DNA of 64,000 bases from Naegleria gruberi (taxonomy: Eukaryota). Location of the stretch: assembly GCA_000004985.1 (NCBI GenBank), contig GG738882.1. The stretch is one strand, 5' to 3'. The notes beneath the pieces were generated by a model. That model saw nothing but the letters and a program-made list of their open reading frames with translations, did not search any database and was not told the DNA's origin. Both the position numbers and the translations under genes were made by a program. Positions 3,732-49,246 of this stretch are shown in pieces; the first letter of the stretch is position 1; every line of letters begins with the position of its first letter.

Positions 3732-6186
3732 TTATATTGAACTATTGGAAGAAGAAGAGGAAGATATGCTGATGGAAATATCCACTGGTGTGACTGGGAA
3801 ATTATCAGAATCTTCAGTAGGTTCTTCATATTGGAGCATGAATCTAACAAATGTGTCCTTCAAGATCATATTGGTTACAACCTTTTGAAGATCATCCAGC
3901 AAGTCAACTTGGCCAAAACCTTCGATAATTCTTTTAACTATGACTTCTCGTTCCTGCTTTGAAATATTCAAAGGGGTAGGTGAGTCTTCCTTCAAATATT
4001 GGGCAATAATTTCATTTTGCTTTTTAGATCTTTCCGAGGTTCTCTTGATATTCTTATACTTGAGCACATCTTCCAAAAAGTTGAAATTCTCAGCAGAAAA
4101 TTCACTTTCACAGAATTGCTTAATGAAAAGCTTGTTAAATAATTCAAGAATAACTTACTCTAAATAATTCCTTTGAACTCTTTTTTGACATTATCTTTTC
4201 AAATTCGAAAGATTGAATGGTTTCCTGTTGCTGTTTGATACTGGCCATTAATTCATGTTGCTCTTTCATATTTCTTGCAACAATTACATAGACTTCAATC
4301 ATTTCTTCATTCTGAATGATGGTTACTCTGGTAGATGATAATGAAACAGGAAGTTTGTTACCAAGGGCTGTAGACAATAATGCATCCTTTCTCGAATTGG
4401 TATTATACGAAAGAGATTCAAATAAGCCAAGAAATTGATCCGTCTCAGCAGCAAGATCACTAACAAGTAAATAATTTGAAATTGCCAAGGTATTCTTCTT
4501 GAGAATTTTCGTTTCAAATATAGTATTGAAGGTGGCAATTTCTCCATTTTTACAATCCACAGTAAAGATGAAATCAGAGATGGCATTCATGATTACTCTT
4601 GCATGCTGTTCAGAAAGGGATGTTTTCTCTAGTAACTCTTGAATTCTTTCATTCTCAGATACAATGACTGTTTGGGATTCGTCCAATGTTTCCAACATGT
4701 TATTAACATCATCAGTCAATAATCCCAGCTCATCCTTACCCATACACTTGACTCTCTTTTTGAAATTATTGCTAATGGTGATTTCTCTAACTGATTTGGC
4801 AAAATTCATCACTCTCTTAATAACAACAACCTCCAAAAAGACCATTATTGCAAATGAGAGCAGTAAAATCATTGCTGTCATTACTGCCCAAGTAATGATG
4901 AAAGAATTGGTTCCCAAAACAAATACTCTTCTTGCAAAGTCTGTTCTAATGATAATACTGTCATTTCGTGAAATGTCATAATATTTCTGAAATGTTGCCA
5001 TTCTAGATCCATAAGCATTTCCATCATCTTCAATATCTGCACAATATCTATTCTCGGTTATAGGATAAAGATTATTTTGTTGATCAACAAAAAGTGGTTG
5101 ATTGAGCTGAGCCATATTGTCTTTCCATTTTGTTACTGAACTTGAACCATTGATTAGTGTTGTTTTCCAATCCCCAACTCTTTCAGTTAAATAAGTATTG
5201 ATCCATTCGTGATTTTGTTTGAAAATGTATGAGCTGCTCTCTGGAGCACTTTCTCCACTAAGAGCAATTGCTAACAAATACCTATGTCTCCAATATTCCA
5301 TATTAAAGAGGGTAATACAGAGTTGAACTCTATTTGCCATATCTTGCTTGTACTCTGCAAGATCAAATCTAGCAAACACAATCAGGCCATATGTTTTTGT
5401 ATTGTAATCATAATTATCCTGTATTGGCATGCCACTCATAAGAATAATATATGAAAGCAGCTCTGTTTCTGTCATGTTGGCCATTATAGCTTGCTTCTTT
5501 TCATATGAGTTCACTAAATTTGGTAAATCTTTAAATGGAGAGAAGAAGCCGACATGTCTTGTTGAAGGTACATCAACATTCCTCAATAAACGAGCTCCTA
5601 GTTCATTTCTCGACAAATCATTGAACTCTTCTGGTAGATTATCCAAACTTATTCCCCTAAAACATGCTCTAAAAGCGAGCAAAGTTCCATCCTTCTTATA
5701 TAATATTGCAAAATTCAATTTGGAAGCCAGTTGATAATTACAATTCAAATAAGTATCCATATATTTCTCAGTAAATGATGAGTTTGTAGCCATAACAGCA
5801 TCAACAGTATCATTAAATGCTCCATATTCGCTAAGCTTTGATGTCAATGACTGAAAATCATCAAAATAGGCCCTTGTAGTTCTCTTTGCAGCTTCTACAG
5901 AATAAGTCTGCTCAACCGAATTAAACGAAAGTAAAAAGGCAGTCACCAACACAGCCAAACAAATAGCCATCAATAACAGAAATAACACTCCAAGCACTGT
6001 CATTGTTTTAAATCTAATACTACTCAATAAAACAACATCTCTCCTATTGGATTTTAAATTCAAAGTAGATGGTGGTCTCAACTTGACAATTCGAGGACCT
6101 GTTTCCTTAGATCGTTTCATATGATATTCTCTGTAGGCTTTGTCATCTTGCCAGGGAGACTCTGAAGGAGATTGTGATTGATACAT
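3732..6186 (-). CDS. receptor-like protein: cytoplasmic N-terminus, TM, ~370-aa extracytoplasmic sensor domain, TM, HAMP-like linker, PAS-like region, C-terminal RGS domain; 2 exons (~4159..6186, ~3732..4118)
   Basis: TM1 is TMTVLGVLFLLLMAICLAVLVTAFLL. A large N-glycosylation-site-rich ectodomain follows. TM2 is FIITWAVMTAMILLLSFAIMVFLEVVVI. The HAMP signature is KRVKCMGKDELGLLTDDVNNMLETL (DE-G-L...N-M..L). The RGS domain starts with QFCESEFSAENFNFLEDVLKYK and ends with DTFVRFMLQYEE. A 40-nt intron (GTAAGT...CATTAAG) joins ELFR to QFCESEF. No HisKA or HATPase motifs are present. Confidence 0.75.
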
Positions 6187-6787
6187 TTTCTTTAATTATT
6201 ATGTAATTTACTATCTCGCTTGCTGATGGCATCGGAAAACATCAAACTCTATCATTTCGAATGTACACTTGTTTCATGATTAATACAATTCAATATAAAC
6301 AACAATATTTGTACAATATTAATATTAATATTGATGAAATTCTGTTTGTTTTCATCAATTAATTAAATTCTCAGAGAACATTTTTTTTCTAATTTTCAAA
6401 TCAAATCACCTCTGATCTATTTAAATACTATGTGATTATTGCTATTGTATCAATTCAAAGTCTCTAATAAGAGAAAGCTCACCTTAGAGGGAATTTTAAA
6501 TTTTTATATTTTTTTCAAATTTAAAAAAAAGATCATCACGAGAAAATTCTTCAAACCTTTTTGATTGTTTTTGGTTTTCTACAAAGCTCAAAATTGGATT
6601 CATCATCAGAGTATAATTGCTATTGGGCGAGAATATATTTTATGCTTGGTTGTGTGATTTATTGGTAAAATTCATCATCCCGAACATTAAAATAGAACGT
6701 TGAAAATTATAAATATAATAACATCAATCATCACGATAATAATATCTATTTAAAAAGTACGACAATAATATCAACAAAAATCAAAGA

Positions 6788-15464: not shown

Positions 15465-17228
15465 TTATTTCCTTGACAAATTATTTGCTGATTTTCCGTT
15501 TTGATTTCCATTATTATTAGCTGCCTTCTTTTCTCTTTCCTTAATAACCTTGTCAATCTTCATCTTTCTCTGGAATTGAACACCAAGTTTAAATCTTTGT
15601 AAAGTATCCAACATGACAACTGCAATTTCATTTTGTAAAGGTTCAAATAAATCATCAGGAAGTTGATCATTCATTTTCTTATCTGGATTGGTGACTAATT
15701 GATCAGAGTCAACTGAAAAGAGTGTGAATTCTTGTAAAAGAGCTTCAACTTGATCGGCAAATCTCTTACTCACATTCACTGAGTTTTTACCATCCAATCT
15801 CAAAAAGTCAACCAAAATTTCATTAGCCAATTCAAATCTCTTATTACAAACAATCTTGTACTCCTCCTCAGTGACATTCTTAATCTTTTTCTTCTTTTTG
15901 AGTGATGACTTGTTATCAGTATCATTAAATGAAAGAGCTGGATTAGTTTGAGTCTTTTTCTGAGAATTATGAGTGGTGGTACTGTGACTTCCACTGGTAA
16001 TTGAGTTTTGTTTCGTTTGATTATCACCAGAGGACACACTCGAGATGGCATCAGTGTCATTTCCAGAAGTGACACTCTTGGCAGCTCCATGATCATCTGT
16101 TTCACTTGTAGAGCTAGTGTCTGTAAAGAGAATATCTTGCATTTCCCAAATTTGTCTCGAATATTCACGATACAAATTAGTTCTAATCAAAACTTCATAA
16201 TTTTCCAATGATAATTCTTGTTTACAATGTTGCTTGAATAAATCTCTCAATTTTGGATCATTCATCACATCTAAAAGCATGACAGCTTTGGCCTTCTTTA
16301 ATCTTTCTCTATTCAAAGCTTCCTTATTAAGAGCTGCCACGAATAGGAAAATCATGACAGGTAGCACAATAATAAATGCAATTATTGTCACTGAAGAAAT
16401 GATAATTGTATAAATTCCCATCCAATTATCTTCAGTATCTGACAAGTAAGATGACATGTCTTCAATGATGGCAATCTTTTTTTCAAACATTTCTTTTAAA
16501 CCTTCATATTCTTCTCCTTCAATAATTGCAATAGCTGTCCCAGTTGAGTTGACATCAATAATCTGTTTCTCCAAAATTTTCAGTTTCGAATGAGCATCCA
16601 TTAGTTCACTAATCACAACATTTTTATCATAATCATGATTAGCAAAATCCTCTACAGGAATAATATTAAAAATCTCATTCAGCATACTATCAATCCAATC
16701 CTGATGTGCCTCTAAATGATTATCCAAATTATTATTCGAATGAGCACTTTGATTATTCAAAAGTTTCGTCAAGCCATCACTCGGATGCACAATAAACGAA
16801 TCCTGATCGAAAATACTCCTATCACTCATATTCAAATAAGCCTTCAAATGCAACCCACTCGTAATCAACTGCTGAATAACCAACACATCTTTCGTCGTCT
16901 TGTATACGAAATTATCCACCTGCGAACGTAATACGAAAGTTTGTGGAAAGATCACTACCAACGCAACCAACAATAACACACTCACCACAATCCCACAAAC
17001 TGACAATAACTTGACCATTGAAATTCGATAGGATTTTTTCTTCTTCATTAGAAAACAACAACAACATGAAGGAAGGACGAGATAGAAACCACGACCATTT
17101 CGACCACTTTTAGAATTGTCGTTGTTGGTTGTGGAAGAGTTGGCTGTTCCTCCTTGAACAGTGTGTTTTTCTTTGGGAAGGGAGAGGAATTGGTGAGAGG
17201 TGTCAGCTGTTGGTAATTGATTTGACAT
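15465..17228 (-). CDS. receptor-like protein: TM - ~230-aa extracytoplasmic domain - TM - split RGS domain (587 aa, single exon)
   Basis: TM1 is LLSVCGIVVSVLLLVALVVIF. TM2 is IYTIIISSVTIIAFIIVLPVMIFLFVAAL. The RGS N-terminal box is LRDLFKQHCKQELSLENYEVLIRTNLY. An S/T/N-rich insertion of ~90 aa follows. The RGS core is FELANEILVDFLRLDGKNSVNVSKRFADQVEALLQ and the C-terminal box is LQNEIAVVMLDTLQRFKLGVQF. Confidence 0.75.
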   Translation of the reverse strand: MSNQLPTADTSHQFLSLPKEKHTVQGGTANSSTTNNDNSKSGRNGRGFYLVLPSCCCCFLMKKKKSYRISMVKLLSVCGIVVSVLLLVALVVIFPQTFVLRSQVDNFVYKTTKDVLVIQQLITSGLHLKAYLNMSDRSIFDQDSFIVHPSDGLTKLLNNQSAHSNNNLDNHLEAHQDWIDSMLNEIFNIIPVEDFANHDYDKNVVISELMDAHSKLKILEKQIIDVNSTGTAIAIIEGEEYEGLKEMFEKKIAIIEDMSSYLSDTEDNWMGIYTIIISSVTIIAFIIVLPVMIFLFVAALNKEALNRERLKKAKAVMLLDVMNDPKLRDLFKQHCKQELSLENYEVLIRTNLYREYSRQIWEMQDILFTDTSSTSETDDHGAAKSVTSGNDTDAISSVSSGDNQTKQNSITSGSHSTTTHNSQKKTQTNPALSFNDTDNKSSLKKKKKIKNVTEEEYKIVCNKRFELANEILVDFLRLDGKNSVNVSKRFADQVEALLQEFTLFSVDSDQLVTNPDKKMNDQLPDDLFEPLQNEIAVVMLDTLQRFKLGVQFQRKMKIDKVIKEREKKAANNNGNQNGKSANNLSRK

Positions 17229-20466: not shown

Positions 20467-23105
20467 TTAACACCTCAGTAAAGATTCAACAATTGTATCA
20501 AGCTCTGAGATTGACTTGATGATGATTTCATTTTTGGTGGTCAAGATCAAAGGTTTGAATGTGAAATTTTGTAAGCAAGAAATAAGGTTACAGATCCAAT
20601 CGCGAACAATTTCAACATCTCCACAACAATTCAAATCATTAAGAATTCCTGTTATTTTCTTCTTGGATTTTAATTGAATTGAAAATAAGAATGCAAAGAT
20701 CTGAAGGAACATATTTCCCAAAGTTAGCATCTCTTCTTTCATCAACTCTGGTCTGTATTCTTTACAGTTATTAATGTCGGCTAGTACAATAGTTTGTGGA
20801 TCATGAATTCCGCACATTCTCTCTATTAATAAATTAAGTTGAGATTTTTCATTGTTAGAAGAAGATCTTGTCATTAAATTTCTTAATGCCAAGTCATGGT
20901 GAAGTAAATTCAACTCCTTAATTAAATAATGATTAGCTCTTAAGCATCCGTCAACGACATAAAATAGAATCATCAGTTGAGAGTTGGAATCCGTGTGCTT
21001 AAGAACTAAATTTGATTCATTCAGAGGAAGTAGCTTTTCAGAAATAGTGACACTTGTTTGATAACTTGCATGTGGTGCAGTTACAACACCAAAAATTACA
21101 TATGGAATACTGATATCTGCAAGAAAATGAAAGTTAACTCTAACATTTTAGCGTCATAATTGGATGAAGGTGATTCTGAATTGAATGTGTTCAAATCAAA
21201 ACAATGGCCATGGCTGCCAAATTTTTGTAAACAATTGTCATCCGAATCTTCTTCATCGTCACTGTCATCATATAGTTGGTTAATATTACTGCTAACGCTC
21301 TTTGTATTGGTGATTTCTAATACTTGAACCAATATCTCTCCATCATACTTCATGTAACCAACCTCAATAGGATTTGAGTACATAGGAGGATTGGTAGTGG
21401 AATTAAATTCAAATGAATCACCTTGTTTATAAACCATAAAAGGAATGTTTCTATCAGTAGCATCCCCTGCAAGTAGAACTGTCTTTTTAACAATAAAATA
21501 TGGATATGTTTTTTGTAAATAAACTTCTAAATCCTTTTCTTCGGCAACTGATAAGCATTTGAGCTTAATACGTGAAGTATAAGAAACAGGAAGTGTAAAA
21601 AATTTGTCAACAACTGATTGGGATCTTAAAGTGATAGGAGTTGAACATAAAGCGGCAATTGAACAGTTATCACTTGGTTGGTAGTTTGTCAGGGAAGCCA
21701 TACGTATACATTCGTCTATTTCTGACATAATGGAGAATAAATCTTCCTTAATAAAAATGTTAAGCAATTTAGAATATGAAAGGCTATAATAAAGCCCATG
21801 CAAAGTGTTTTCTACTTGGTGAAATCTTGGCTTCATCTTCAGAATAACAAGCCCTCCACTGGTATCGATTAGAAACAGTTTTACCACTGCTTGTTTTTTA
21901 GATTCATCATCTATTTTTTTCTGCGTCATTTTAGTTGCAATATCTTTCAAAACAGCCCTTCCCTCCAGAATGATTTTAACAGTGTCTTTGTGAGCACAAA
22001 GGAACTCCTCTGCATTGGAAGCATTAATGTTACGTTTTTCAAATTCACCTATCGCAAAATAATGATCTAGTTGTGCATTAGTACGCATAATTACAAAGTC
22101 AGAATGCATTCTACTAGTGTCTTCAACCCATTTCTTGTTCATAATATTTAGAGACAGTTTCAAACTTTGAGAAGCCAACTTTTCACCACTCTTGAAAAAC
22201 AAACTATTTCTATTTTCCAATGATAAATCAGAAAAAATGTGATAACGGTTGAAAATCATTAAGAAATAATCCTTGAATGTCATTTCAGTAATTTCAGTTT
22301 TAGATTCTATCATGTTGTGGAGTTTAAATAATGGAAGAAATAAGCAGGAGGAAGAGAAGCGCAACAAATCAAACTGGTGTTTAAGAGGTGTTTTTTCTAA
22401 TTTTTGGGCTAATTGTTGAGATTCATTGTATTCCTTATCCAAAAACAAGTAAAGTTTCTCATCTTTTGGAAGATTATTATGCTTTGTCCATTTAATTCCA
22501 AAAGATGTAAGGAAACTACATAAATACCCCTTTAAAGTCGATGGTAGACTTGAATTTCTTTTAAATATTTGGTGTGCCACACTGTTTGGCTCTATTTCAT
22601 CCATTGAAAATGGAAACTGCAAGTTTCGAAAAGTCATTCCAAAATGTTCTAGAATTCCCATAAACCCTTTGAAACTATTGGTGAGAAAACATACATGTCT
22701 TACTTACTTGTAAATGTTCAAAATACTCCACAACTCATCTGGATCAACCAATTCGTCAGGTACTTCGTCATCCATGAGTAGGTCTGCTTCCTCAAATTTT
22801 CTCTTCAAACCTACAGTTACTTGTAGAGTTTCTGAATCTCCTTTTGTTCTTTTTTTAACTTGGACCAACAATTTAGGCTGTGGAAGAACCTCTGTGGTGG
22901 TTGCCTTCTTATTCTTCACTAAGCTGAAGTCTTGTTGTATCGAACCAATATATTCAGATTTGGAAGAAGGAATAGAGTTAATTACATCATCCAAGGCTAA
23001 AGAATCAATCGGAAATATCTGGTCTGGTAGAGCATAGCCATATTGACCAGACTCAAATTTAAAAAAGAAAGCTCCTGCTGGGGGTGCATCTAGTATCGGC
23101 ACCAT
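20467..23105 (-). CDS. hypothetical protein (~840 aa), at least 3 exons: ~22714..23105, ~21109..22673, ~20467..21061(or 21049)
   Basis: There are three long minus-strand ORFs in three frames. The junction IYN|FKGFMGILEH uses a GTAAGTAAG donor and CAATAG acceptor (40 nt). The junction VFH|I|YQTSVTISEK uses a GTAATT donor and a 35- or 47-nt intron. A possible additional 5' exon lies at ~23150..23215 (see findings). No recognisable domain. Confidence 0.45.
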
Positions 23106-24814: not shown

Positions 24815-26257
24815 TCAAACATTATTTCCCTCAATTCCTTCCTTAACCTCCGAATGATGCACAACTTTTCCCTTCTCACTTTCTGCCACTTTCTTCCTAC
24901 CTTTCTTCCCAACTTTCTCCTTCAAATTCGAAGGAGTCTTGAACAACCTCTGAACCTCTCTCAACGGTGAAATCAACACCAATTGAATAATCAAAAATCC
25001 CAAAATTGCAATATTCGAAAAGCAATGATAAAACAACAATGAAAATTGCCATCCAGTTGCTCCAGGTAGAAATGCCAATCCCAATAATTGGATGAAAAAG
25101 CAAATTGTTAATCCAATTTGAAGTCCAAGAGATTTTCGAAGTGCCTTCTTTTTGAGTTGATAAGTATTGTCGATTTCTTGGTTTGTCTTGTTGACAGATT
25201 TGGAAAATGACTTGTCAATAACATGTGAAGTGAGGGATTGGTCTTTTTTAGTTGGGGATTGGATGCTGTTGGCGTCTGGAATGGGAGTGGTTGGGGTGAT
25301 GTCAATGTTTTGATGTTTGCTGTCATGTGAAGAAGCACTTTTGACATTGTCACTTGTGCTTGTCAAATCTTCGAGTTCATAAGGTTGAGCAGTTGAGGAA
25401 CCACCCTCTTCCAAGTGATGTGTCGTTCTCTTCATCATTTCTCTAATTTTCTTCTTACTTGCTTTGAGAGCTCTGTATAATCTGAAACCATAAGTCTATT
25501 CGAAATTATTCGAAAAGTTACAATGAAGAAATTCAACAATTACTTACATTCATAAAGATTGCAGTGGCTACCATTCCCATAAACATAATAACCATTGGAG
25601 TGATAAAGATTACGATGGATAATTGCTGTTGACTAATTGGTGAAATTCCACTTCCTCTCAAACCATGTAAAACTGCAATAACTAAAATGTGACCAAGAAA
25701 GAATAACACAAAAAAGATGATTAGGAGAGAGATGAGAAGGTATTTGGATGCTTTGAATTCCTTTTCGGTTATATAGTTGGTCAAACGAGTAGTTTTTAAA
25801 CTAGACGAAAATGAATCGAATAAAAATTTGTGAAAACTTACAAGACAAATCCAATAAAACCCATGATTAAAATTTGATTATACAACAAGACTGCACTCAT
25901 TGATCTATCAATACCCTTAATTACATTATTCAAGTCAAATGCCACTCTATAAATCGGATTAAGAAATGACAATTCACTTGACAATCTCGTGACATTTTGA
26001 AAGAATGAAAAGAAAGCCAAAGCAATATTCATCCAATACAAGATGTGCTGATTCCGTTTCAATTGTCGAAATTGAATAATATAATACACCAACAGAACAA
26101 CAAAGAAAATTAAAAAAATAAAAATTGGACCTCCGTCAATTCCTGCCACTAATTGACTGTACAAGTCAAATGAGAAGGAGGTTGCGTTCTGTGACTGGGT
26201 TTGTTGGATTACATATGCATCTTGAAGAAAATCATCTCCAATATTTCTGAATGTCAT
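24815..26257 (-). CDS. seven-transmembrane orphan membrane protein (~450 aa); exons ~25842..26257, ~25548..25800, ~24815..25495
   Basis: There are seven hydrophobic helices: IFIFLIFFVVLLVYYII, ILYWMNIALAFFSFF, VLLYNQILIMGFIGFV, YLLISLLIIFFVLFFLGHILVIAVL, LSIVIFITPMVIMFMGMVATAIFM, LGLQIGLTICFFIQLLGLAFL, FSLLFYHCFSNIAILGFLIIQLVLI. A ~130-aa hydrophilic loop separates TM5 and TM6. The introns are 41 and 52 nt (GTAAGT donors). The junctions give GFV|F|LKTTR and FMN|TYGFRLYRALK. Confidence 0.55.
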
Positions 26258-32382: not shown

Positions 32383-34320
32383 GTGGGAAGCATTCCTTCA
32401 ACACCAAGAACAACATTAGCTTCTACTACCAATCAAGTTGCTCATCCGAATGTTGTTGTCTCCTCCTCACCATCAATTCATCATCAACCAATGACAAGTC
32501 AATCGACGACGAATTATTACCATACCGATCATGCACAGTATCATTCATTCAGTAATGAAGTTGGAGTTTCGTCTGCCCTTCCTCCCAAGATGCAACAAAA
32601 GAAGAGACATAACACAACTGCCTCGACAAGTTCTTCCTCATCCTCCTCTTCTAATGAGCATACCACCATATTGGAAATTGCTAGTGGTGAAGCTTTGTCA
32701 TCAACAACTAATGGTATAACACCTGCGACTCCAATTCCAGTCCGACAATATCAGCAACCAACAATTCAACCAATTCTCACAATGAATTCCAACACCATTC
32801 AACCACATCAACAGCAGCAGCAACATGGATACTTTATGAATGGATCCACTCAATCATCATTTGATAATACTCAAATGCAATCTCATCAAGGACACGTCAT
32901 GATAATGATGGACGATGATAAGGGAGAAGCAAAGAAGAGAAAGAGAAGAAATCAAGCCAAATCAGCTTGTGAGCAATGTAGAAGAGCTCACACTGCCTGT
33001 ACTGATCAAAAACCTTGTCTCAGATGTGTCAAGTTAGGATTGCAATGTGTTGAAGCTCCTAAAAAGAAACAAAAACCAAATGGTAAAAGCTCATCTGGCA
33101 ATAACAGTCCTCCTCCAACAAATGTTAATAATACATACAGTACAGATACATCTCCTTATGGTAGTGATTTGAGCAGTTTAGCCACCAGAATTCAAAACAT
33201 TCCCAATATGAATCCAATTGCAAGTGAGCAACATCAACATGAATCAGTAATGAATTCAGCAGGAAAGAGCTCTTCAAGTTCTTCCTCTTCTGATGGTGAC
33301 TACTCTTCTGGAACAACCAACAGTCCAACTCAACAAACAACCTCCTATCCTCCTCAAGTTCCTACCATCCAAACTCCACAACCTTCCTTTGCAATTAATA
33401 GATTAACACCTCTCTCAGTTTCTCAATTCCAAACCTTAATTAAGGAAGGCAATGTAGAAAAGGTGCACCAAGTTTGTGAAATTTCCTATCAACTCATTAC
33501 TATGAGTGTGGATGAAATCAAGACTATCTATCCAGTGCTCGTTCCAGCTGGACAAGAACAGTTAACCTTCAATACCAACAGAAATGGGTTCTTATTGGCC
33601 TATTTGTATGGTAAATTCAATATTATGAACGCCATGAGAGATATTTTGTGGAAGCAATACAGATCAGAATACTTTAGTTTCCTTTTCAAGTTAATTTCAT
33701 TTGATGATGATAAGGCACTCATTAGAATGTATCTTCAAGGTATTCAATATGATTTGAATACTGTTGAAAATGAAAAGAGTATTGGTCTGTTGAGTTTCTG
33801 TGCCTGTTGTGGAAGAATTGAAATTTTCAAATTGCTCTGTGAAGAATTCCAATGCTCCCTTTTCCAAGTGAGAAATGAAAAGTATTTACCAATACACTTT
33901 GCCTGTAGTTACTCAAATGTAGAAATTGCAGAATACATCCTCCAAAAGTATCCAATCCAATTGGATATTCAAGTTAACAATAATAGTTCTCCACTATTGG
34001 TTTCAGCAGCATATGGCAGTCTCAAAAGTATCAAATTTTTAATTGATCGAGGAGCCAATGTAAATTTATGTGACATTGATGGTCTGTATGCTATTCACTA
34101 TGCCGTCAAGTACAATCACTTTGCTGTTGTCCAATATCTAGCTCAACATAATGCTGATTTTTCTGTCAAGAATAACTCTGGTCAAACAATATTTGACTTC
34201 GCGACAGATTCAGACAAGAAGTTTATGCTAGAACTAATTGTACAAAACAAAAACCTTAATGATAGAATTTTATTACAGGAGGATATAATCAAAAACATGA
34301 AACCAACATCATGTAAATAA
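32383..34320 (+). CDS. Zn(II)2Cys6 (GAL4-type) DNA-binding protein with C-terminal ankyrin repeats (645 aa)
   Basis: The binuclear cluster is KSACEQCRRAHTACTDQKPCLRCVKLGLQCVE (C-x2-C-x6-C-x6-C-x2-C-x6-C). Ankyrin units include LLSFCACCGRIEIFKLLCEE...LPIHFACSYSNVEIAEYIL...SPLLVSAAYGSLKSIKFLIDRGANVNLCDIDGLYAIHYAVKYNHFAVVQYLAQHNADFSVKNNSGQT. The N-terminus is S/T/Q-rich. The start codon appears to be GTG in the track, and the first in-frame ATG (MTSQST) lies ~35 codons downstream. Confidence 0.75.
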   Translation: MGSIPSTPRTTLASTTNQVAHPNVVVSSSPSIHHQPMTSQSTTNYYHTDHAQYHSFSNEVGVSSALPPKMQQKKRHNTTASTSSSSSSSSNEHTTILEIASGEALSSTTNGITPATPIPVRQYQQPTIQPILTMNSNTIQPHQQQQQHGYFMNGSTQSSFDNTQMQSHQGHVMIMMDDDKGEAKKRKRRNQAKSACEQCRRAHTACTDQKPCLRCVKLGLQCVEAPKKKQKPNGKSSSGNNSPPPTNVNNTYSTDTSPYGSDLSSLATRIQNIPNMNPIASEQHQHESVMNSAGKSSSSSSSSDGDYSSGTTNSPTQQTTSYPPQVPTIQTPQPSFAINRLTPLSVSQFQTLIKEGNVEKVHQVCEISYQLITMSVDEIKTIYPVLVPAGQEQLTFNTNRNGFLLAYLYGKFNIMNAMRDILWKQYRSEYFSFLFKLISFDDDKALIRMYLQGIQYDLNTVENEKSIGLLSFCACCGRIEIFKLLCEEFQCSLFQVRNEKYLPIHFACSYSNVEIAEYILQKYPIQLDIQVNNNSSPLLVSAAYGSLKSIKFLIDRGANVNLCDIDGLYAIHYAVKYNHFAVVQYLAQHNADFSVKNNSGQTIFDFATDSDKKFMLELIVQNKNLNDRILLQEDIIKNMKPTSCK

Positions 34321-36630: not shown

Positions 36631-39600
36631 TTATTCCAAATTGGCTTGCTTCATCAACTTATTCTTGTAGTTAACAATTCCTTGATAAGTTTCGAATTGT
36701 TGAGTGAAGATAAATCTAGAAAAGGTGTCACTCAAATTGAAAAGAACTTGATTTTGGAGAGTTTCAATTGATTTTCTGATTGACTCTTTCAATTCTTGTG
36801 AAATTTGATTCTTTTTGCCAAAATTCTTTCCATTTTCCAATTCAATATCTTTAGTTTTAGAATCTGTAGAGTCCAGGTCCTGTACAAGATTAACGAATGA
36901 TTTCTTACAATCTGATGGGATGTTAACTTCCTTCAAAGAACCGTTCTTGACATAGGTTTCATAAATATGCAGAATAATTGTTTGAGCTTGGTGAGAATCG
37001 TCCAAGTTTTCAAAAACATTATTCTGATTTTTGATTTCCAAATAAAGTTGTAAATTTTCAAGGGAATACTCCTTTTCGCAGAACCATTCGAACAATTGCA
37101 AACCCTCAGCATGTTCTAATAATTTCACTAACTCTTCTCCTTCATCTTGTTTAGTTTCGTATGAGCTCTTTCTAATCTTGTGAATAAATAGCACAATTAA
37201 AGAATAACCTCCAAATACAAACAAGTAACTGAACAAGTAGAGAATGTCAAAAAGTAATGAAATAGAATCATTCAATAGTAACATTTTCAAAGAGTCTGTC
37301 TTTCGATAAGTCAATCCTGATAGGCCAATAATTTGTGAAATAACCAAAAAGGTAAAACACATTACAAACAAACACATCTCAGCTCTGAAATATAATGGAG
37401 AATCCAATCTAATAATATTTTCATAAACCCCTTTCAGTGGAATCTTTACAAGTTTCTTTGCAGTTGTAAAATTATCGAATTTCTGCAGTTTTTCCAAACT
37501 TTTACCAGTAAGTAAATCATTCAAAGAGAAATTGAGCTTCCTTGTTTCATTATCTGTTGTTTGTTCTTGACCTTGTTTGATAATTTCGTTTTCCTTTCTC
37601 TTGGAGAGGAAGACCATAATCCAATCCAATGCAATCATACAACAAATAATGAATCCTAGAAGGAGAATCGAACAAGTAAACGAAATGGAAACAATATGAG
37701 TATACGTAGTGCCTGTAATGGCTCCAGTACGAATGAGAATAACCCACAGAGTCCAATACAATACATTCAATGTTACAAATACTGACATTACAATAAGCAT
37801 TACCTTGGTTGAAAGGAATAGTTTTGTAACCTTGAGAAGTGTTTCACTCTTTGGTTCTTTAGAATTAAACCTCAACCATATTTGATGATGAAAATATTTC
37901 AATACTTGGAATCTTAAAACTTGATACAAGTAGGAAAAGATTGCAGTGAGTGTAATGGTGTTTACAATAATTGTAAAAATATTCGAAATGATATTAGCAG
38001 CCAAATCTCCATTTTGTAATTGAAGAACTGTAGATTGACTATTTTCAAAATCATTTTGATTTCCAAGAACACTATTAGCATATCTCAGTAGAATACCTCT
38101 CTGAGTTATAAGTAAAAGTGCACATTCAATGATAAGAGCTGCCATTCCAATAAAAGGAGTTACAAATCTGCTAGTGACAGGTTGAGATTTTCTGAAAACA
38201 ATCAACAGTACTAAAGTAATCGATGATAGAATCAAGAATAAAGAGCCGAATGAAATTTGAGCAATGTAGAGTGAAGAAACTTGTTTAAGGAATTCTGCAT
38301 TTGTTGGAGTTTCTTGTTCTACAAATGCTGCAAAGAGAGTTGTGTGATTACATTGACAAGTTAATTGCTTGGTTTGATTGTTGAAATAATAAACTGAACA
38401 TCCTTCTCTTTCCCATTTGTGATTTGTTTCGTTCCAAAATTGGCAGCTTAATGAAGTGTTAGAAACTGAAGAGTTTGTTTCTAATGTAAAGCTAATGTAG
38501 ATTGGTTCAATTAAGTTGGACAATGATAACGGAGAACCAGATTTGTATAATGTGAATTCTTTTGAATTAGTCAATTGTGTTGAATTACCATTTGTGTACA
38601 AATTCTCATCAAAGGTTATGAGAGCCAATCCAATTTCCTTATAGTATCCATCGTATTTGGCAAGAATATAATCTGTATCTATTGTAACTCCATTAAATTC
38701 CTGAACAACATTGTCAATAGATGAAGTTTTCAAAAAAGTGGAAGTTGTAATGTTGATCAAGTCGGATATGTATGAATTCTGATCGAGAGATCCTGAAAAT
38801 ACTCTTGATGCTTGTTGGTTAATAATAATGGAAGATAATTGGGAACAAAGAGTTGTCACATTAACAAATCCGTTCAATAAAATATTGCTGGCAGATGACA
38901 AGGTATTTTTCAAATCGCTTTCTGACATTCTTTGTTTAGAGAGATAACCATTGGAAGACTTATCACTTTTGATTATTTCATTTACCGAGCCCAAGAAATT
39001 CTCCAATTTGGAACTAAGGATAGAAGCTACTTTGTTTTCTAATGAATTTGTTGTTGTCAACTGGTTAATAACTTCCAAAGTAAGTGAAGGATTTTCAACA
39101 TGGAGGTTAAGACTGTTCACATATTCGTATATTATTTCATTTGATTGTTTTCTTGATTGATCGTATGGAAGGATAACCGACAATCTCTCATCGTGTCTTA
39201 TTCTATACTGTAAGGTTTCTGCATCTTCAGAGTTGAGAAGAACTTGGACTGAACCAAAATATTTTGAATATTGATTGGAGAGACTGTCTCTTGCAATGAC
39301 ATATATTTGAACAGTGGCAGACTCAGTTTTGTTATTAGACAAATAAGGAAGGTAGCATGAACAAGTAAGATTCTTTGAAAACTCATTCATTCGAATAACA
39401 ATGTTTTCCCCATGTACATTCGAATATTCAAAACCAAATGCAAACTCTAACGGGGAAAGCTCGTATGGTACAATCCAGTTGTTCAAATCTTCTTCAAAGT
39501 TGAAAAGCGTTGAAAGGGCCATTCCTGTTTGAGGTAAAATATTAACATTAGAATGTAATCTTTCAGGAGGAGACAATATTGGAATGCTTTCTAAAAATTC

Positions 39601-42600
39601 AACTGTTTCAGAGAGATTTTGAGAATTATAAAATTTCACACTCAGTGTCAAGTTTCCTTGACCGTTATTATGAAAACTTCCTTTTAGAGAAAGAACTGGA
39701 CTAAACGAAAGTTTGTACAAACCATTAGTAGATCTTCCAATAAAACTGGCAAGTATATACTCTGGTGGTTGCGAATAAATTTTTTGATTTCCATCACTAA
39801 TCTGCCATGAATATTTCAAATTCGTCCAAGTACAATTTGTACAATTATTAGAAAGTCTAATGGATTCAAAATCATTAATATATTCTAAATATGCACCAAT
39901 GATGTTCATATCTATAACTTGGTTCAATCCTTTGACAACAGCTTTTGGTTTACCAATTATTTCTATTAATCTCTTTTCCTTTACAATTTTTTCCTTACAA
40001 TTCGCTCCAAAATAATCTGGTTTACAAGCACACGTGTTAGGATAAATGCAACTACCTTGTCCTGAACAAACTAAAGATGAATTTGTATAAATCACTCCAA
40101 AGCAATGGAAGAGGTCACAATTAATTCCAGTAAATCCTTCATTACATATACAGGTATCGGTGATATTGCAGTTTCCATGCCCAGAACAAACATTAGAATT
40201 ATTGAAAAGGACTCCATTACAATAAAATGTTTCACAATCCAATCCATCATATCCAATCTTACATGTACAGGAATTAGGAGAAGTACAAGTGCCAAATCCA
40301 GAACAAACACTTGTAGAATTATGCAATTGAGCATTACAATAAAAAGTCTCACAATTATCCCCGAAATAACCATCCTTACATTGACAAATATTTGGCAAAG
40401 TGCAATTTCCGTTTCCTGAACAAACCATTGAAGAATTGTGATTCACATTATTGCAGGAATAGTTTTCACATTCGTTTCCGCTATATCCAGAACTACAGAT
40501 GCAATTATTAGGAGAAGAGCAATAGCCATGTGATGAGCATACTTTGGAGGAATTATTCAATAGACCACTACAATTATAACTTTCACAATTATTACCAAAA
40601 TATCCATTCAAACAAGAGCAATTGTTTGGAGCAGTACAGTTTCCATTTCTAGAACAAACATCTGTGGAATTGTGCATCTTGTCACCACAAAAGTACGTTT
40701 CACAATTATTTCCATAATATCCTGTTTGACATGAAGAACAAATATTTGGAGATTGACATACTCCTCGTCCACTACAAACCTTTGTTGAATTGTTTTGAAT
40801 TCCAAAACAATCCCATACACTGCAATCTGATGAATAGTAGTTAGAAGAGCAAGAGCATTGATTTCCAGCAATACATACACCATGCCCTGAACAAACATTA
40901 GTTGAGTTGGTTGCATTAATTCCAAAACAAATTGGAACCTGACATAACGCACCTGTATATAGTGGAGAACACTGACAGTTGTCTATTCCTACACACGTAC
41001 CATGTCCAGAACAAACAATTGATGAGTTAGATAAGATTCCATTACATTTAGGATATTGACATCTCTCTCCTCCATATCCATTAACACATGAACACTGATT
41101 TACACCAATACATGTCCCTTTACCACTACAAACGTTAGATTCCCCTTGAAGAATACCATAACATTTGGGTTTCTCACAGTTTACGCCTCCCCACGAGCTG
41201 CTATCAGTGCATTGGCAAGTGTTAGGAGACTGACATGTACCTCTGCTATTACAAACAGTTCCATCTGTAGAAATAATGTTATTACATTTTGGAAATTGAC
41301 ATAGGTTACCTCCCCAATTATTTTGATCGTTACAATTGCAATTTTCAATGGAACTACATATTCCTCTTGAGTTACAAACAAGCGGATCACCCTTAAAATA
41401 AGATCCACATTTAGGATTTTCACAAAATTGACCTGAATAATTTGGATCGCAAATACAAACATTTGGGGCCGTACAGACACCATTTCTATTACAAACATTT
41501 GCGTCGCTGGCTGCTATACTATTACATTTTGGAAATTGGCAGAAGACTCCAGTATAATTTGTATTGCATGCACATGAACCCACACCAACACATGTTCCAT
41601 TTGCACTACAAACTTTGGGATCAGTTGACAGTATGTTGTCACACTTTGGATATTGACAATCTGATCCTCCCCAATTGTTTGGTACATTACATGTGCAAGA
41701 ATCTGGTGCTGAGCAAACACCTCTACTATTACATACACCAGCATTACCTTGTAAAACTCCATTACATTTTGGTTTTTCACAATTTTGACCTCCCCATGCT
41801 GCTGGACTTGTACACTGACACGAGTCAACTGCTGAACAAAGACCTCTTCCATTACAAACATTGGATTCTCCCTGAAGAATTCCAGAACATTTTGGTTTTT
41901 CACAATTAGCTCCTCCCCAACTTGTTGGTTCATCACATTGGCACTGATTGTTTCCAATACATTTGCCTCTACCTGAGCAAACTGTTGCAAAGTTAATACT
42001 CTCAATACCATTACAAAAGCTTGTAAAACACTGTGTGCCATTACTGTTCAGGTTGTAACCATTATCGCAAGTTGGCATTAAAACACGAATCTTATTCGTA
42101 CCTCTCTCTGCAAATATAATTTGTCCAGTAGTTTCATTCACAAACAAACCAGCAGGAAGTGAAAGAGGACTCAAATGTGAAATTGACCCATCATCTGCAA
42201 GGGCTTGTATTCCATTACCAGCAATGGTTGAAATGATTCCATTCTTCACTCTTCTAATTCTATTGTTTTCGTGATCTGATATATAAATTACTTCATCTTG
42301 AGTAACATAGACAAATACTGGATCTTGCAGCATGGAAGATTTTGCAGCAACATTATCTGGTCCAAATCCTAAGGTTCCATTTCCTGCAACAGTTGAAATC
42401 TTTCCGTCTGGTTGAATCATTCTTATTCGATGATTCTTCTTATCGACAATGTAGATCTTATCATTTCTAACGAAAACACCATGGGGTTCATTTAACTGAG
42501 CTGTACTTGCTTGAATTCCATCTCCATTATAATTAGCCGTTCCAGTACCTGCAATAGTGGTAACAGTTCCTGACTCGACCTTTTTAACTTTGTGATTATA

Positions 42601-43176
42601 AAAGTCAGCAATATAATATAAGCCAGTGTAAGGTACAAAGATAGCTGGTGGATGGTCTAGTTGAGTTACTCCTGTGGCTCCTATAGCATCTCCACAACCA
42701 GGAACCCCAACACTTGTTGCAATGATATTAGAACTCACCATACGAATTTTACAGTTATATTGATCTGCAATATAAATGATATTGTCCATAACAAAGACAC
42801 CATATGGATAGTATAGTTTGGCAGAGGTAGCTAACTGTCCATCTCCTGTAGAACCTTGTTGACCAACCTTGCCAGCAATAATGGTAACATCACCATTAGC
42901 ACTTCTTTTCTGGACAATATTATTGTACTGATCCACAAAGTAAATCTCATTGTTGTACATGTGCAGGCCACCAGGTTTTTGTAAATTACTAACGAGAGTT
43001 TGGATTGTATATTTGATAGGCGATTCGGCTTGTTTAGAATATCCACCCCACAAGAACAAAATCACCAGAACAATTATTGGCAGGCATCTGTTTGGAAGAG
43101 GTGTCATACTATTTTTTTTGTTGAGATTCGTTTTGTTTATGCACTTCACCACTTGGACTGTTAAGTCCATTCTCAT
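36631..43176 (-). CDS. adhesion-GPCR-like giant protein (2181 aa, single exon): signal/anchor, NHL repeats, ~20 EGF-like Cys repeats, spacer, GPS-like motif, 7TM, C-terminal RGS domain
   Basis: The NHL repeats (~plus 42070..43000) include YFVDQYNNIVQKR, IYIADQYNCKIRMV, YYIADFYNHKVKKV, IYIVDKKNHRIRMI, IYISDHENNRIRRV. The EGF-like units (~40150..42070) follow the pattern PKC.G.L.....VC.SRG.C..P..C.C....W.G..C. The GPS-like motif (~38330..38450) is CQFWNETNHKWEREGCSVYYFNNQTKQLTCQCNHTTLFAAF. Seven helices lie at ~37180..38290. The RGS domain (~36690..37130) starts with LQLFEWFCEKEYSLENLQLYLEI and ends with LSDTFSRFIFTQQFETY. Confidence 0.8.
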   Translation of the reverse strand: MRMDLTVQVVKCINKTNLNKKNSMTPLPNRCLPIIVLVILFLWGGYSKQAESPIKYTIQTLVSNLQKPGGLHMYNNEIYFVDQYNNIVQKRSANGDVTIIAGKVGQQGSTGDGQLATSAKLYYPYGVFVMDNIIYIADQYNCKIRMVSSNIIATSVGVPGCGDAIGATGVTQLDHPPAIFVPYTGLYYIADFYNHKVKKVESGTVTTIAGTGTANYNGDGIQASTAQLNEPHGVFVRNDKIYIVDKKNHRIRMIQPDGKISTVAGNGTLGFGPDNVAAKSSMLQDPVFVYVTQDEVIYISDHENNRIRRVKNGIISTIAGNGIQALADDGSISHLSPLSLPAGLFVNETTGQIIFAERGTNKIRVLMPTCDNGYNLNSNGTQCFTSFCNGIESINFATVCSGRGKCIGNNQCQCDEPTSWGGANCEKPKCSGILQGESNVCNGRGLCSAVDSCQCTSPAAWGGQNCEKPKCNGVLQGNAGVCNSRGVCSAPDSCTCNVPNNWGGSDCQYPKCDNILSTDPKVCSANGTCVGVGSCACNTNYTGVFCQFPKCNSIAASDANVCNRNGVCTAPNVCICDPNYSGQFCENPKCGSYFKGDPLVCNSRGICSSIENCNCNDQNNWGGNLCQFPKCNNIISTDGTVCNSRGTCQSPNTCQCTDSSSWGGVNCEKPKCYGILQGESNVCSGKGTCIGVNQCSCVNGYGGERCQYPKCNGILSNSSIVCSGHGTCVGIDNCQCSPLYTGALCQVPICFGINATNSTNVCSGHGVCIAGNQCSCSSNYYSSDCSVWDCFGIQNNSTKVCSGRGVCQSPNICSSCQTGYYGNNCETYFCGDKMHNSTDVCSRNGNCTAPNNCSCLNGYFGNNCESYNCSGLLNNSSKVCSSHGYCSSPNNCICSSGYSGNECENYSCNNVNHNSSMVCSGNGNCTLPNICQCKDGYFGDNCETFYCNAQLHNSTSVCSGFGTCTSPNSCTCKIGYDGLDCETFYCNGVLFNNSNVCSGHGNCNITDTCICNEGFTGINCDLFHCFGVIYTNSSLVCSGQGSCIYPNTCACKPDYFGANCKEKIVKEKRLIEIIGKPKAVVKGLNQVIDMNIIGAYLEYINDFESIRLSNNCTNCTWTNLKYSWQISDGNQKIYSQPPEYILASFIGRSTNGLYKLSFSPVLSLKGSFHNNGQGNLTLSVKFYNSQNLSETVEFLESIPILSPPERLHSNVNILPQTGMALSTLFNFEEDLNNWIVPYELSPLEFAFGFEYSNVHGENIVIRMNEFSKNLTCSCYLPYLSNNKTESATVQIYVIARDSLSNQYSKYFGSVQVLLNSEDAETLQYRIRHDERLSVILPYDQSRKQSNEIIYEYVNSLNLHVENPSLTLEVINQLTTTNSLENKVASILSSKLENFLGSVNEIIKSDKSSNGYLSKQRMSESDLKNTLSSASNILLNGFVNVTTLCSQLSSIIINQQASRVFSGSLDQNSYISDLINITTSTFLKTSSIDNVVQEFNGVTIDTDYILAKYDGYYKEIGLALITFDENLYTNGNSTQLTNSKEFTLYKSGSPLSLSNLIEPIYISFTLETNSSVSNTSLSCQFWNETNHKWEREGCSVYYFNNQTKQLTCQCNHTTLFAAFVEQETPTNAEFLKQVSSLYIAQISFGSLFLILSSITLVLLIVFRKSQPVTSRFVTPFIGMAALIIECALLLITQRGILLRYANSVLGNQNDFENSQSTVLQLQNGDLAANIISNIFTIIVNTITLTAIFSYLYQVLRFQVLKYFHHQIWLRFNSKEPKSETLLKVTKLFLSTKVMLIVMSVFVTLNVLYWTLWVILIRTGAITGTTYTHIVSISFTCSILLLGFIICCMIALDWIMVFLSKRKENEIIKQGQEQTTDNETRKLNFSLNDLLTGKSLEKLQKFDNFTTAKKLVKIPLKGVYENIIRLDSPLYFRAEMCLFVMCFTFLVISQIIGLSGLTYRKTDSLKMLLLNDSISLLFDILYLFSYLFVFGGYSLIVLFIHKIRKSSYETKQDEGEELVKLLEHAEGLQLFEWFCEKEYSLENLQLYLEIKNQNNVFENLDDSHQAQTIILHIYETYVKNGSLKEVNIPSDCKKSFVNLVQDLDSTDSKTKDIELENGKNFGKKNQISQELKESIRKSIETLQNQVLFNLSDTFSRFIFTQQFETYQGIVNYKNKLMKQANLE

Positions 43177-46998: not shown

Positions 46999-49246
46999 AT
47001 GGTTATTAAAAAAATGTTCAAAGAAGACTTTCGAGAGACATCTTCTCGGAATAGGTCGGATGATGCCACAGCTGCTGACAGTGATTTCAATCAACAACCC
47101 TTCATCACAATACAGCATCATCATCATGATCATCATCAACCTTCTAGGAATCATCATAATTTTAATAGGTCATCATCACTCTCCATACATTCTCATCATA
47201 CAAATACCAATAGTAGAACAAGCCATCATCACCATCACAATAACAGTAATGATTCTAATCAGAGTTTTGAAATGGTTCCTCTGACTGTTCTTACTCCCTA
47301 CAAAAGTAGTACTCAACAGTCTTCTTCATCTAATCAAAGCCTTCTTTTGAGTCTTCCTTCCTCTCCATCAGCAACTCCAAGTTTGAAAAGGTCAAACTCT
47401 TCTGGAGGAGGTTTAGATATCACTCAACTCAGTGCAAGATCGAGTGATTTTAGCTTTCTAGAAGAAACTCAACAAGAAAATAAGAATAATATCGAGTATG
47501 CAGATTCGTACATGTTGATGTGGAGTCCTTGGCATTCAATGTATAATAATTTATTTGTAGAATTTTGGATGGTGAAAATTAATTCTAGGCTTGACGATGA
47601 GGAATGTACAAATATTGGAGAGAATGTAAATTGTAAATTATTGCCAATTAAACAAGCTTCAAAGAGCTCGAATTTGGAAAGATTTCCAACTGGAAACTTT
47701 TGGAGTTATTCTGTTGGATTGGAAACATTTAGAGAAAATCAACAATCAAATCAAAGTGTTTCTACTCATTATTTTGGTAATGAGCTTGAAGATTTGATTA
47801 TTTGCTTTTTTGGAGTGACGAAAATTATGAAATTTAAATTGAATGTGAGCAAGATGAAAATTAGAGATCGAAAATCTTCGACCACTCATGAATATGTAAC
47901 AGGAGTAGAGTCTGTAGAGTTTGTAGAGCTAATTGATTATGACTTTCTCAGTAGGTAAGTTACATAATTCGAGGATTAGTTAAATTAACTTTGATAGAAA
48001 GTCTCCTCTAGATGCTTATTCATCGTGGGACTCATTCCCAGACTCAGATGATATTGACGAATCTGGGAATGAAATCACACAAGATATTTACCAATCTCTA
48101 TTTCGTTCCAGTCACAATGCTCTCAAAATTAGTAACATTCCTCGTTTAGAATTTGTACATAATGATAATGAGCTCAATTTTGTAAAGTGTGACAATGACT
48201 ATAATTTTAATATTTATTCAATGAACAAGAGAAGAATGGATGATAATGGGAATTATTCTCTCTCGTTAGAGTTGACACCTCAAACACCTACAAGCAGTAG
48301 TAGCACAACTCTGGCAATTATTCAAAAGACGAGTGTCTATTTATCAAAGGTTCACTCACTGAATGTTCTGTTTTTCCAAAAGCAAACAACTAGAAAACTT
48401 TTTAATAAGGCAAAAAGTCCAACTAGTGGAAGATTTGAATTACGATCATTAAATTCTGTCAAGACAGGATTTGAAACGATTGGAGATGTAATCCCATTTG
48501 ATTTAGATACAGAGAGTGGGCTGCATCAACCCAGCCAATACGTAAAAGTTTGTAAATTCGATGATAACATGTTTGTCGTTTTGGAAATTGACAAATACCT
48601 ATTGAAAAAGCTAGGAGACAAAGAGGTGAATGCTGAAAATATTGATTCAATGCTCAATACGCATCACCACCACGTTACTAGCTTACCCAAATATTTTAAA
48701 TTATTCATTCTAGATTTAAGCAATCCAGAAGATGTTAAAATCAAAAAACTCACCAATCTCAAAAAGCAACAACATACTTCACCTAAATTGAATAGTAGTA
48801 TTTACAAATTTAGTACGGAAATTTCAACAACAACCTCGAATAATATTTATTCCTCATCTTCATCTCTTGGAATAGAAGAATCAAAGGGATTTATTCCTAT
48901 TTACAAACACCAAAAGTCGAAGAAGAGAACCACAAAATCTCATTTCACATTTCAACACAATGATGATGTGTTTAACATGATTGTTTTTAAACAAGATCCT
49001 CACAAAAATCCCCATCACTACACTCTGGCAATATTCTACAAAGCATTTGGGGATAGATATCAATTCAATGGTGAAGTATCAGATCATTCACCATTTAAAG
49101 GAAGATGGTACGAACTTGTTCACTTTACACATGTTTCATGGTCAAAGTACAAAACCCTTTTTGACCACGCCAATTTTCTTAATCATGCTGATCCTTCACT
49201 AATTTCCAATCTAGGTTTTACAGATTTGTATTTTGAATTTGATTAA
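46999..49246 (+). CDS. hypothetical His/Ser-rich protein (~735 aa); exons 46999..47954 and ~47998..49246
   Basis: ATG start. His runs are present (QHHHHDHHQPSRNHH, SHHHHHNN). The 43-nt intron (GTAAGT...TTGATAG) joins ...DYDFLS(R) to KSPLDAYSSWDSFPDSDD... and stays in frame with the downstream 341-aa ORF. No known domain. Confidence 0.5.

Follow-up and report, generated by a model that had tools for sequence, protein, structure and literature searches.

A putative receptor-type GTPase-activating protein of Naegleria gruberi belonging to a heterolobosean CHASE4-HAMP-PAS-RGS family

A gene located on contig GG738882.1 of the Naegleria gruberi assembly GCA_000004985.1 brings together, in a single predicted product, a sensor and transmitter of bacterial type and the RGS domain of eukaryotic G-protein signalling. 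It lies on the minus strand at positions 3732..6186 of the window analysed here (i.e., the whole stretch of 64,000 nucleotides) and its product is probably a receptor-type GTPase-activating protein (GAP), one member of a heterolobosean CHASE4-HAMP-PAS-RGS family. The 804-aa product is organized as a cytoplasmic N-terminus, a first transmembrane segment (TM1), a CHASE4 ectodomain, a second transmembrane segment (TM2), a HAMP domain, a helical linker, a PAS-like domain, a second helical linker and an RGS domain. An earlier note, made from the DNA letters, had already described a sensor/TM/HAMP/PAS protein in which an RGS domain takes the place of HisKA and HATPase; Pfam searches, hydropathy and family profiles bear this architecture out, and neither HisKA nor HATPase_c was matched by Pfam in the product, the region following PAS being occupied by RGS.

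The gene starts with an ATG at position 6186, an in-frame stop being found 3 codons 5' of it (open reading frame (ORF) bounds 4147-6195), ends with the stop codon 3734-3732 and contains a single intron. The two reading frames from which it had been assembled are both present, namely an ATG-started ORF of 680 codons at 6186-4144 (minus strand), whose C-terminal end is ...KELFRVSYS*, and downstream, in a different frame, an RGS-coding stretch running to the stop at 3734-3732. Exon 1 (4159..6186, codons 1-676) would be joined to exon 2 (3735..4118, codons 677-804), which codes for most of the RGS domain and an acidic, Ser-rich tail, by removal of a 40-nt phase-0 GT-AG intron (4119..4158, GTAAGT...TTAAG), all on the minus strand. 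The splice-site context, ...TTT AGA|GTAAGTTATTCTTGAATTATTTAACAAGCTTTTCATTAAG|CAA TTC TGT..., is compatible with such an intron, unspliced read-through of which yields VSYS and then a stop, and the expected spliced junction 4159/4118 is ...TTATTTAGA|CAATTCTGT.... The length of 795 aa initially given for the product has to be corrected to 804 aa. Elsewhere in the window, a simple pattern scan returned candidate introns of 41-75 nt (2388-2458, 22667-22707, 25496-25547, 47955-48011 and 51079-51153), all with GTAAGT donors and joining adjacent ORFs, which are usable as a local splice-site model; with its 40 nt, the intron is hence not out of line with local sizes.

That this intron joins the sensor exon to the RGS exon, as had been proposed, is well supported by comparison. 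Indeed, the RGS domain straddles the junction: exon 2 alone spans Pfam RGS profile positions 17-109 with 59 bits, and when the tail of exon 1 is added the match grows to positions 2-109 and 68.7 bits, while the exon-2 ORF taken from its own first start codon covers positions 32-109 only, with 38.5 bits. In a profile built from 27 family members, the exon-1 and exon-2 ORFs occupy positions 8-611 and 610-723, respectively, and are thus collinear and abutting (630 + 156 bits). Moreover, the metagenome contig L001 carries a relative with 45% identity in which a 36-nt GTAAGT...AG intron interrupts the same FR|QFC codon boundary and precedes an exon for RGS; once spliced, the product of this relative exceeds the Pfam thresholds for RGS (60.2 bits), CHASE4 (28.7 bits) and HAMP (27.4 bits). 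In many metagenomic relatives (e.g., P0004, P0010, P0013, P0015 and P0016), sensor and RGS are found within one unspliced ORF. In the contig L002 of another strain (98.8% identical), the intron is still present with unchanged sequence, so that this contig is genomic DNA. Compared with this strain, the exons diverge by 0.54-0.78% (exon 1, 0.54%) and the flanks by 2.7-7.3%, and both exons together show 10 synonymous and four non-synonymous changes with zero indels. Judged by these counts, both exons are under purifying selection, the flanks having diverged 4-10 times more.

Two further observations concern the same junction. An alternative 28-nt intron (4158-4131) was rejected, as it lowers the RGS match from 68.7 to 58 bits and adds four residues absent from relatives. 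In the RefSeq model of the closest paralogue, D2VY64 (P0003), five residues (xFCxx) are missing, and this gap coincides precisely with the intron of the window gene (window aa 676-682), which suggests a shared intron with one splice site mis-set in the D2VY64 model.

Regarding the output, the RGS domain (3837..4203, minus strand, aa 662-770), which the intron splits behind aa 676, was rightly called canonical. It matches Pfam RGS (PF00615) with 68.7 bits (E 7.5e-19, profile positions 2-109 of 117, cut-off 23.9), and the structures of RGS2, RGS4 and RGS8 are recovered with E ~5e-8 using the single sequence and with 2.8e-14 using the family profile. In the alignment with RGS4, the G-alpha contact positions are kept as SAEN (E87/N88), LNIS (N128) and KDTFVRF (D163/R167), and the corresponding family-wide patterns S-x-E-N, LN[IV]S and DTFxRF are conserved in most members. 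GAP activity on G-alpha is the function predicted from these conserved contact residues.

On the sensor side, a hydropathy scan located two hydrophobic segments, at ~aa 62-86 and ~428-456, with five N-X-S/T sequons in between, and by this pattern the gene product is a two-pass membrane protein. The cytoplasmic N-terminus (6004..6186, minus strand as for all features of the gene, aa 1-61) precedes the first segment and is weakly conserved among relatives. TM1 (5929..6003, ~aa 62-86, Kyte-Doolittle peak 3.07) is conserved with its counterpart in P0002, and TM2 (4819..4905, ~aa 428-456, peak 2.85) leads without break into HAMP. The ectodomain between them (4906..5928, ~aa 87-427) is nearer ~340 aa than the ~370 aa first estimated, and it can be named: by sequence comparison at the family level it is in all likelihood a divergent CHASE4 sensor with insertions, CHASE4 being a member of the Cache clan (PMC4822843). 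In relatives, Pfam CHASE4 (PF05228) reaches 28.4-53 bits, over the 26.2-bit cut-off, and of 91 CHASE4 proteins of bacterial type, 90 are matched by the family ectodomain profile in the CHASE4 region (domain E ~1e-27, Z = 1e6). A PDB search with the family profile matched the ectodomain to the N-terminal part of a diguanylate cyclase chain (9p50_A, E 0.002). Two cysteines, C290 and C382, are invariant in 20 aligned sequences, which fits with an extracellular, disulfide-bonded domain.

The transmitter consists of HAMP (4672..4818, ~aa 457-505, connector motif GKDELGLL), followed by a signalling helix (aa 506-525) and a PAS-like domain (~aa 526-640; 4267..4671 for both), then by a helical linker to RGS (4204..4266, aa 641-661) with a conserved EQxEL...QQ..L pattern. 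The HAMP signature noticed earlier holds as a motif, DE[LI]G.L being conserved across the family alignment, and as a family-level match: HAMP in relatives scores 26.4-36 bits, above the 25-bit cut-off, NCBIfam models for sensor kinases and for the diguanylate cyclase YfiN hit the TM2+HAMP region (1e-7 to 1e-5), and the family profile retrieves the Af1503 HAMP structures 2y21/3zrw (PDB search, E 0.003-0.004). The PAS-like segment likewise finds support in profiles and relatives, since Pfam PAS_9 is matched in a family fragment (P0033, 37.4 bits), the PAS-region profile matches bacterial PAS repeats (domain E 1e-5 to 1e-7), and the family profile matches the PAS protein 3mjq (E 0.007) and PpsR (E 0.024) in the PDB. 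Of note, the helix between HAMP and PAS has exact 7-residue, i.e., heptad, deletions in 9/27 aligned members, and the PAS-to-RGS linker is modelled as helical, with low confidence, in an otherwise poor AlphaFold2 prediction.

When the exon-1 profile was used in an exhaustive HMMER search, 37 cluster representatives reached E<=1e-30 and 350 reached E<=1e-10; among the best ~57, 43 carry a C-terminal RGS and the remainder are mostly fragments or exon-1-only ORF calls. Word-indexed protein searches had missed this family, the full protein returning two proteins and a 20-sequence family alignment five. At least seven other paralogues are present in N. gruberi (D2VY64, D2VDE5, D2W2R3, D2W3W3, D2W0L7, D2W0H3 and D2W421), and the similarity to the D2VY64-type family is full-length and collinear from TM1 to the end of RGS, with 44.6% identity to D2VY64 in one BLASTP alignment over 766 aa and 27-40% to the six others; D2W421 (P0007) has CHASE4 and HAMP with a degenerate C-terminus devoid of a Pfam RGS match. 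Outside N. gruberi, members occur in N. fowleri (A0A6A5C166), N. lovaniensis (A0AA88GSH1), Willaertia magna (KAL9651711.1) and Acrasis kona (KAL0487670.1), and every member whose source is named belongs to Heterolobosea. All of them bear automatically assigned names ('RGS domain-containing protein', 'HAMP domain-containing protein', 'predicted protein'), and some metagenomic members are labelled 'methyl-accepting chemotaxis protein' by the IMG prokaryotic pipeline. The search for orthologues across Amoebozoa that the earlier note had envisaged does not fit the source, which is a heterolobosean (Discoba) and neither an amoebozoan nor a dictyostelid: in the window, four ORFs without introns agree in full with the N. 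gruberi NEG-M RefSeq proteins XP_002674745.1, XP_002674747.1, XP_002674826.1 and XP_002674830.1. The receptor gene itself sits between an RCC1-like gene and XP_002674745.1. Among protein-search matches, no NCBI or UniRef protein corresponds to the window's CHASE4-HAMP-PAS-RGS gene, which was recovered solely in unspliced form, as the 99%-identical ORF P0001 of a Logan assembly (ERR1078381), and it may be absent from or mis-modelled in the reference annotation.

The nearest relatives lacking RGS are bacterial-type proteins with the same sensor-transmitter module, ranked below the RGS-bearing family, with architectures such as CHASE4-HAMP-PAS-HisKA-HATPase (P0062), CHASE4-HAMP-GAF-GGDEF (P0054) and CHASE4-HAMP-(PAS)n-cyclase (P0084). 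These kinases and diguanylate or adenylate cyclases share with the window protein the order TM1, CHASE4, TM2, HAMP, signalling helix and PAS, with homology detectable in all sensor-transmitter modules and with HAMP motifs and heptad-phased linkers common to both. However, they terminate in HisKA/HATPase, GGDEF or a class III cyclase, whereas the window protein terminates in a eukaryotic RGS, has an ectodomain about twice as long as bacterial CHASE4, with insertions, sequons and conserved cysteines, and is encoded in a eukaryotic host by a gene with a spliceosomal intron. The sensor-transmitter module was probably obtained from bacteria and rewired to eukaryotic outputs in an ancestor of Naegleria, Willaertia and Acrasis. 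As a separate observation, two CHASE4-HAMP-class III cyclase proteins encoded on one 12.4-kb JGI metagenome contig (P0042, E 1e-26; P0050, E 1e-23) are nearer to the RGS family than are typical bacterial CHASE4 proteins (~1e-15); these two may represent paralogues from Heterolobosea with the sensor cassette of the family coupled to a cyclase.

The earlier note had regarded this HAMP-to-RGS fusion as impossible to place and as a receptor class of its own. This view is not supported, the same architecture being found in a public multi-paralogue heterolobosean family and the concept of a receptor-RGS being known (PMC9283941; PMC3971589). Seven-transmembrane (7TM)-RGS proteins have been described in Arabidopsis (AtRGS1), in N. 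fowleri, which has 28, and in Trichomonas, chytrids and others; they have been proposed as the point at which self-activating G-alpha subunits are regulated, and GAP activity has been shown for N. fowleri members (PMC9283941; PMC3971589). Like them, the window protein is integral to the membrane and receptor-like, with a canonical cytoplasmic C-terminal RGS; unlike them, it has two transmembrane segments instead of seven, carries a CHASE4/Cache-like extracellular sensor and reaches RGS through HAMP and PAS, which 7TM-RGS proteins do not have. It is therefore not a categorically new receptor class. Its ectodomain belongs to the same sensor family (PF05228, Cache clan; PMC4822843) as IsmP of Pseudomonas aeruginosa, whose CHASE4 domain binds iron directly, the only CHASE4 ligand that was found reported (PMC10904736). 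Nevertheless, sequence similarity to IsmP is remote, its partners and outputs pertain to c-di-GMP metabolism, and iron binding by the Naegleria ectodomain is not implied. HAMP modules also work in eukaryotes in fungal group III hybrid histidine kinases (Nik1/Os-1 type). A Cache sensor module is likewise present in the eukaryotic Sln1 (PMC4822843). Both Sln1 and the Nik1/Os-1-type kinases retain a histidine-kinase output with a phosphorelay, and none is known to be tied to heterotrimeric G proteins.

Canonical RGS domains speed GTP hydrolysis by G-alpha, and HAMP, signalling-helix and PAS modules signal as parallel dimers. In N. fowleri, G-alpha subunits self-activate by exchanging nucleotide spontaneously and are substrates for the GAP activity of RGS domains from its 7TM-RGS proteins (PMC9283941). 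Given such spontaneous exchange by Naegleria G-alpha, a regulated GAP, and not an exchange factor of the G-protein-coupled receptor type, would set G-protein activity, and by analogy with what has been proposed for 7TM-RGS proteins the window protein may exert this kind of control. It would work as a parallel dimer, like bacterial CHASE4-HAMP-PAS kinases and cyclases: an extracellular ligand would bind the CHASE4 ectodomain and shift the packing of TM2, HAMP and coiled coil, and this shift would alter how the membrane-tethered RGS engages GTP-bound G-alpha and, as a result, G-alpha deactivation. We put forward more tentatively, as an idea with slightly less than even chances, that a horizontally acquired bacterial cassette (Cache-like sensor, HAMP, signalling helix and PAS) allosterically gates the GAP activity of RGS and constitutes, alongside 7TM-RGS proteins, one of the principal routes by which ligands act on self-activating heterotrimeric G proteins.

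Several points weigh against these proposals. Pfam searches of the spliced product place RGS above its cut-off, while CHASE4 (22.6 bits at aa 109-293, cut-off 26.2) and HAMP (21.5 bits at aa 463-502, cut-off 25) fall just below theirs and no PAS match appears at E<=1 in the 804 aa; the CHASE4, HAMP and PAS assignments draw their support from relatives and family profiles. An AlphaFold2 prediction of the exon-1 product from a 2-sequence alignment was unusable (mean pLDDT 34.8, pTM 0.22) and gives no 3-D support. The splice is supported by comparison, GAP activity is a prediction throughout the family, and the bacterial origin is deduced from domain distribution. As to the ligand, iron, by analogy with IsmP, is a lead only. 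Finally, RGS domains act on G-alpha as monomers, whereas the HAMP/coiled-coil output would be dimeric, and control could instead be exerted by localisation, as for AtRGS1.

This last possibility leads to the foremost rival explanation, which we hold to be unlikely yet worth serious attention: RGS would be a constitutive membrane-anchored GAP, over which the CHASE4-HAMP-PAS part would have indirect control through clustering, phosphorylation or endocytosis that a ligand induces and that takes the GAP away from G-alpha, without HAMP-to-RGS allostery. Such a relocalisation mechanism has been discussed for 7TM-RGS proteins on the AtRGS1 model (cited in PMC9283941). It would accommodate the monomeric action of RGS domains, the Ser-rich C-terminal tail as a possible phosphorylation site, and the presence in the window of RGS receptors devoid of HAMP in which RGS directly follows the last transmembrane segment. 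However, it leaves aside that the continuous helical connections from HAMP through PAS to RGS are strongly conserved and that indels in the signalling helix are exact heptads, which is the signature of register-dependent transmission as in the bacterial relatives.

With a clearly lower probability, RGS could be a docking or input site, either as an RGS-homology (RH)-type scaffold, as in GRKs, axin and sorting nexins, or by binding GTP-bound G-alpha so as to modulate the receptor, with the output elsewhere (e.g., partner binding by PAS). Some RGS-homology domains have indeed no GAP activity (PMC3971589), the family profile also matches the RH domains of GRK2 and SNX25, more weakly (E 1e-6), and the degenerate C-terminal region of D2W421 would be in line with such a role. 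Against it, the top matches are canonical, GAP-competent RGS domains of the R4/R7 type, and both this protein and most members keep Glu-Asn, Asn and Asp/Arg where RGS4 contacts G-alpha. Lastly, it is most improbable that the locus is a pseudogene or two separate genes, i.e., a sensor truncated at VSYS* and a small RGS protein starting from a TTG/ATG in 4076-3732: although the intron is near the lower end for this genome and protein searches recovered no NCBI or UniRef model of the gene, the first ~15 RGS profile positions are encoded in exon 1, the family profile runs collinearly over the junction, L001 shares the intron position, paralogues are uninterrupted fusions, selection has preserved both exons free of indels, and a stand-alone exon-2 ORF would be deprived of RGS helices 1-3.

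Regarding novelty, no published HAMP-RGS or CHASE4-RGS architecture was found by full-text literature searches, and an earlier description may exist, most likely in a 2011 survey (Anantharaman et al., Gene 475:63). De Mendoza et al. note solely that RGS is often fused to transmembrane segments, and TM-RGS proteins are widespread (PMC3971589). One survey attributed a Cache-clan domain to just one Naegleria protein, an adenylate cyclase (PMC4822843); the family seems to have escaped it, and the divergent CHASE4 ectodomains found here suggest that this count is too low. The family sequences have been public since the N. gruberi genome of 2010, and the family is unnamed.

If the receptor-GAP reading is correct, the logic of regulated switching off extends from 7TM-RGS proteins to a second, structurally unrelated chassis, and a sensor-transmitter cassette from bacteria can be coupled to signalling by heterotrimeric G proteins in a eukaryote. 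Allosteric gating, if true, would moreover be the first HAMP-type conformational control of a GTPase-activating domain, forming a direct prokaryote-to-eukaryote hybrid pathway. The rules of HAMP and PAS signalling are well understood, and it is standard practice to build chimeras with EnvZ, Tar or cyclases. The family would thus offer a tractable system for addressing how a dimeric coiled-coil output regulates a monomeric GAP domain, and it could reveal which environmental ligands act on Naegleria species, among them the pathogen N. fowleri, where a member occurs.

Other genes of the window deserve mention. At 15468-17228 (minus strand), a 587-aa protein identical to N. gruberi XP_002674826.1/D2VMK7 has TM1 (~72-95), a ~175-aa ectodomain, TM2 (~275-300) and an RGS directly after, with no HAMP; its RGS is divided by a long Ser/Thr-rich insert and scores 23.7 bits in Pfam against a cut-off of 23.9. 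It is the third receptor-like RGS gene within the same 64 kb, another being a 2181-aa ORF at 36631-43176 (minus strand), in which a signal peptide, NHL repeats and numerous EGF repeats of teneurin-like type are combined with some seven hydrophobic segments (aa 1638-1999) and an RGS at the C-terminus (Pfam, 35.8 bits), and which looks like an adhesion-receptor-like 7TM-RGS protein. In addition, an ORF at 32383-34320 (plus strand) has ankyrin repeats together with a Zn(2)-Cys(6) binuclear cluster domain of the fungal type (30.6 bits).

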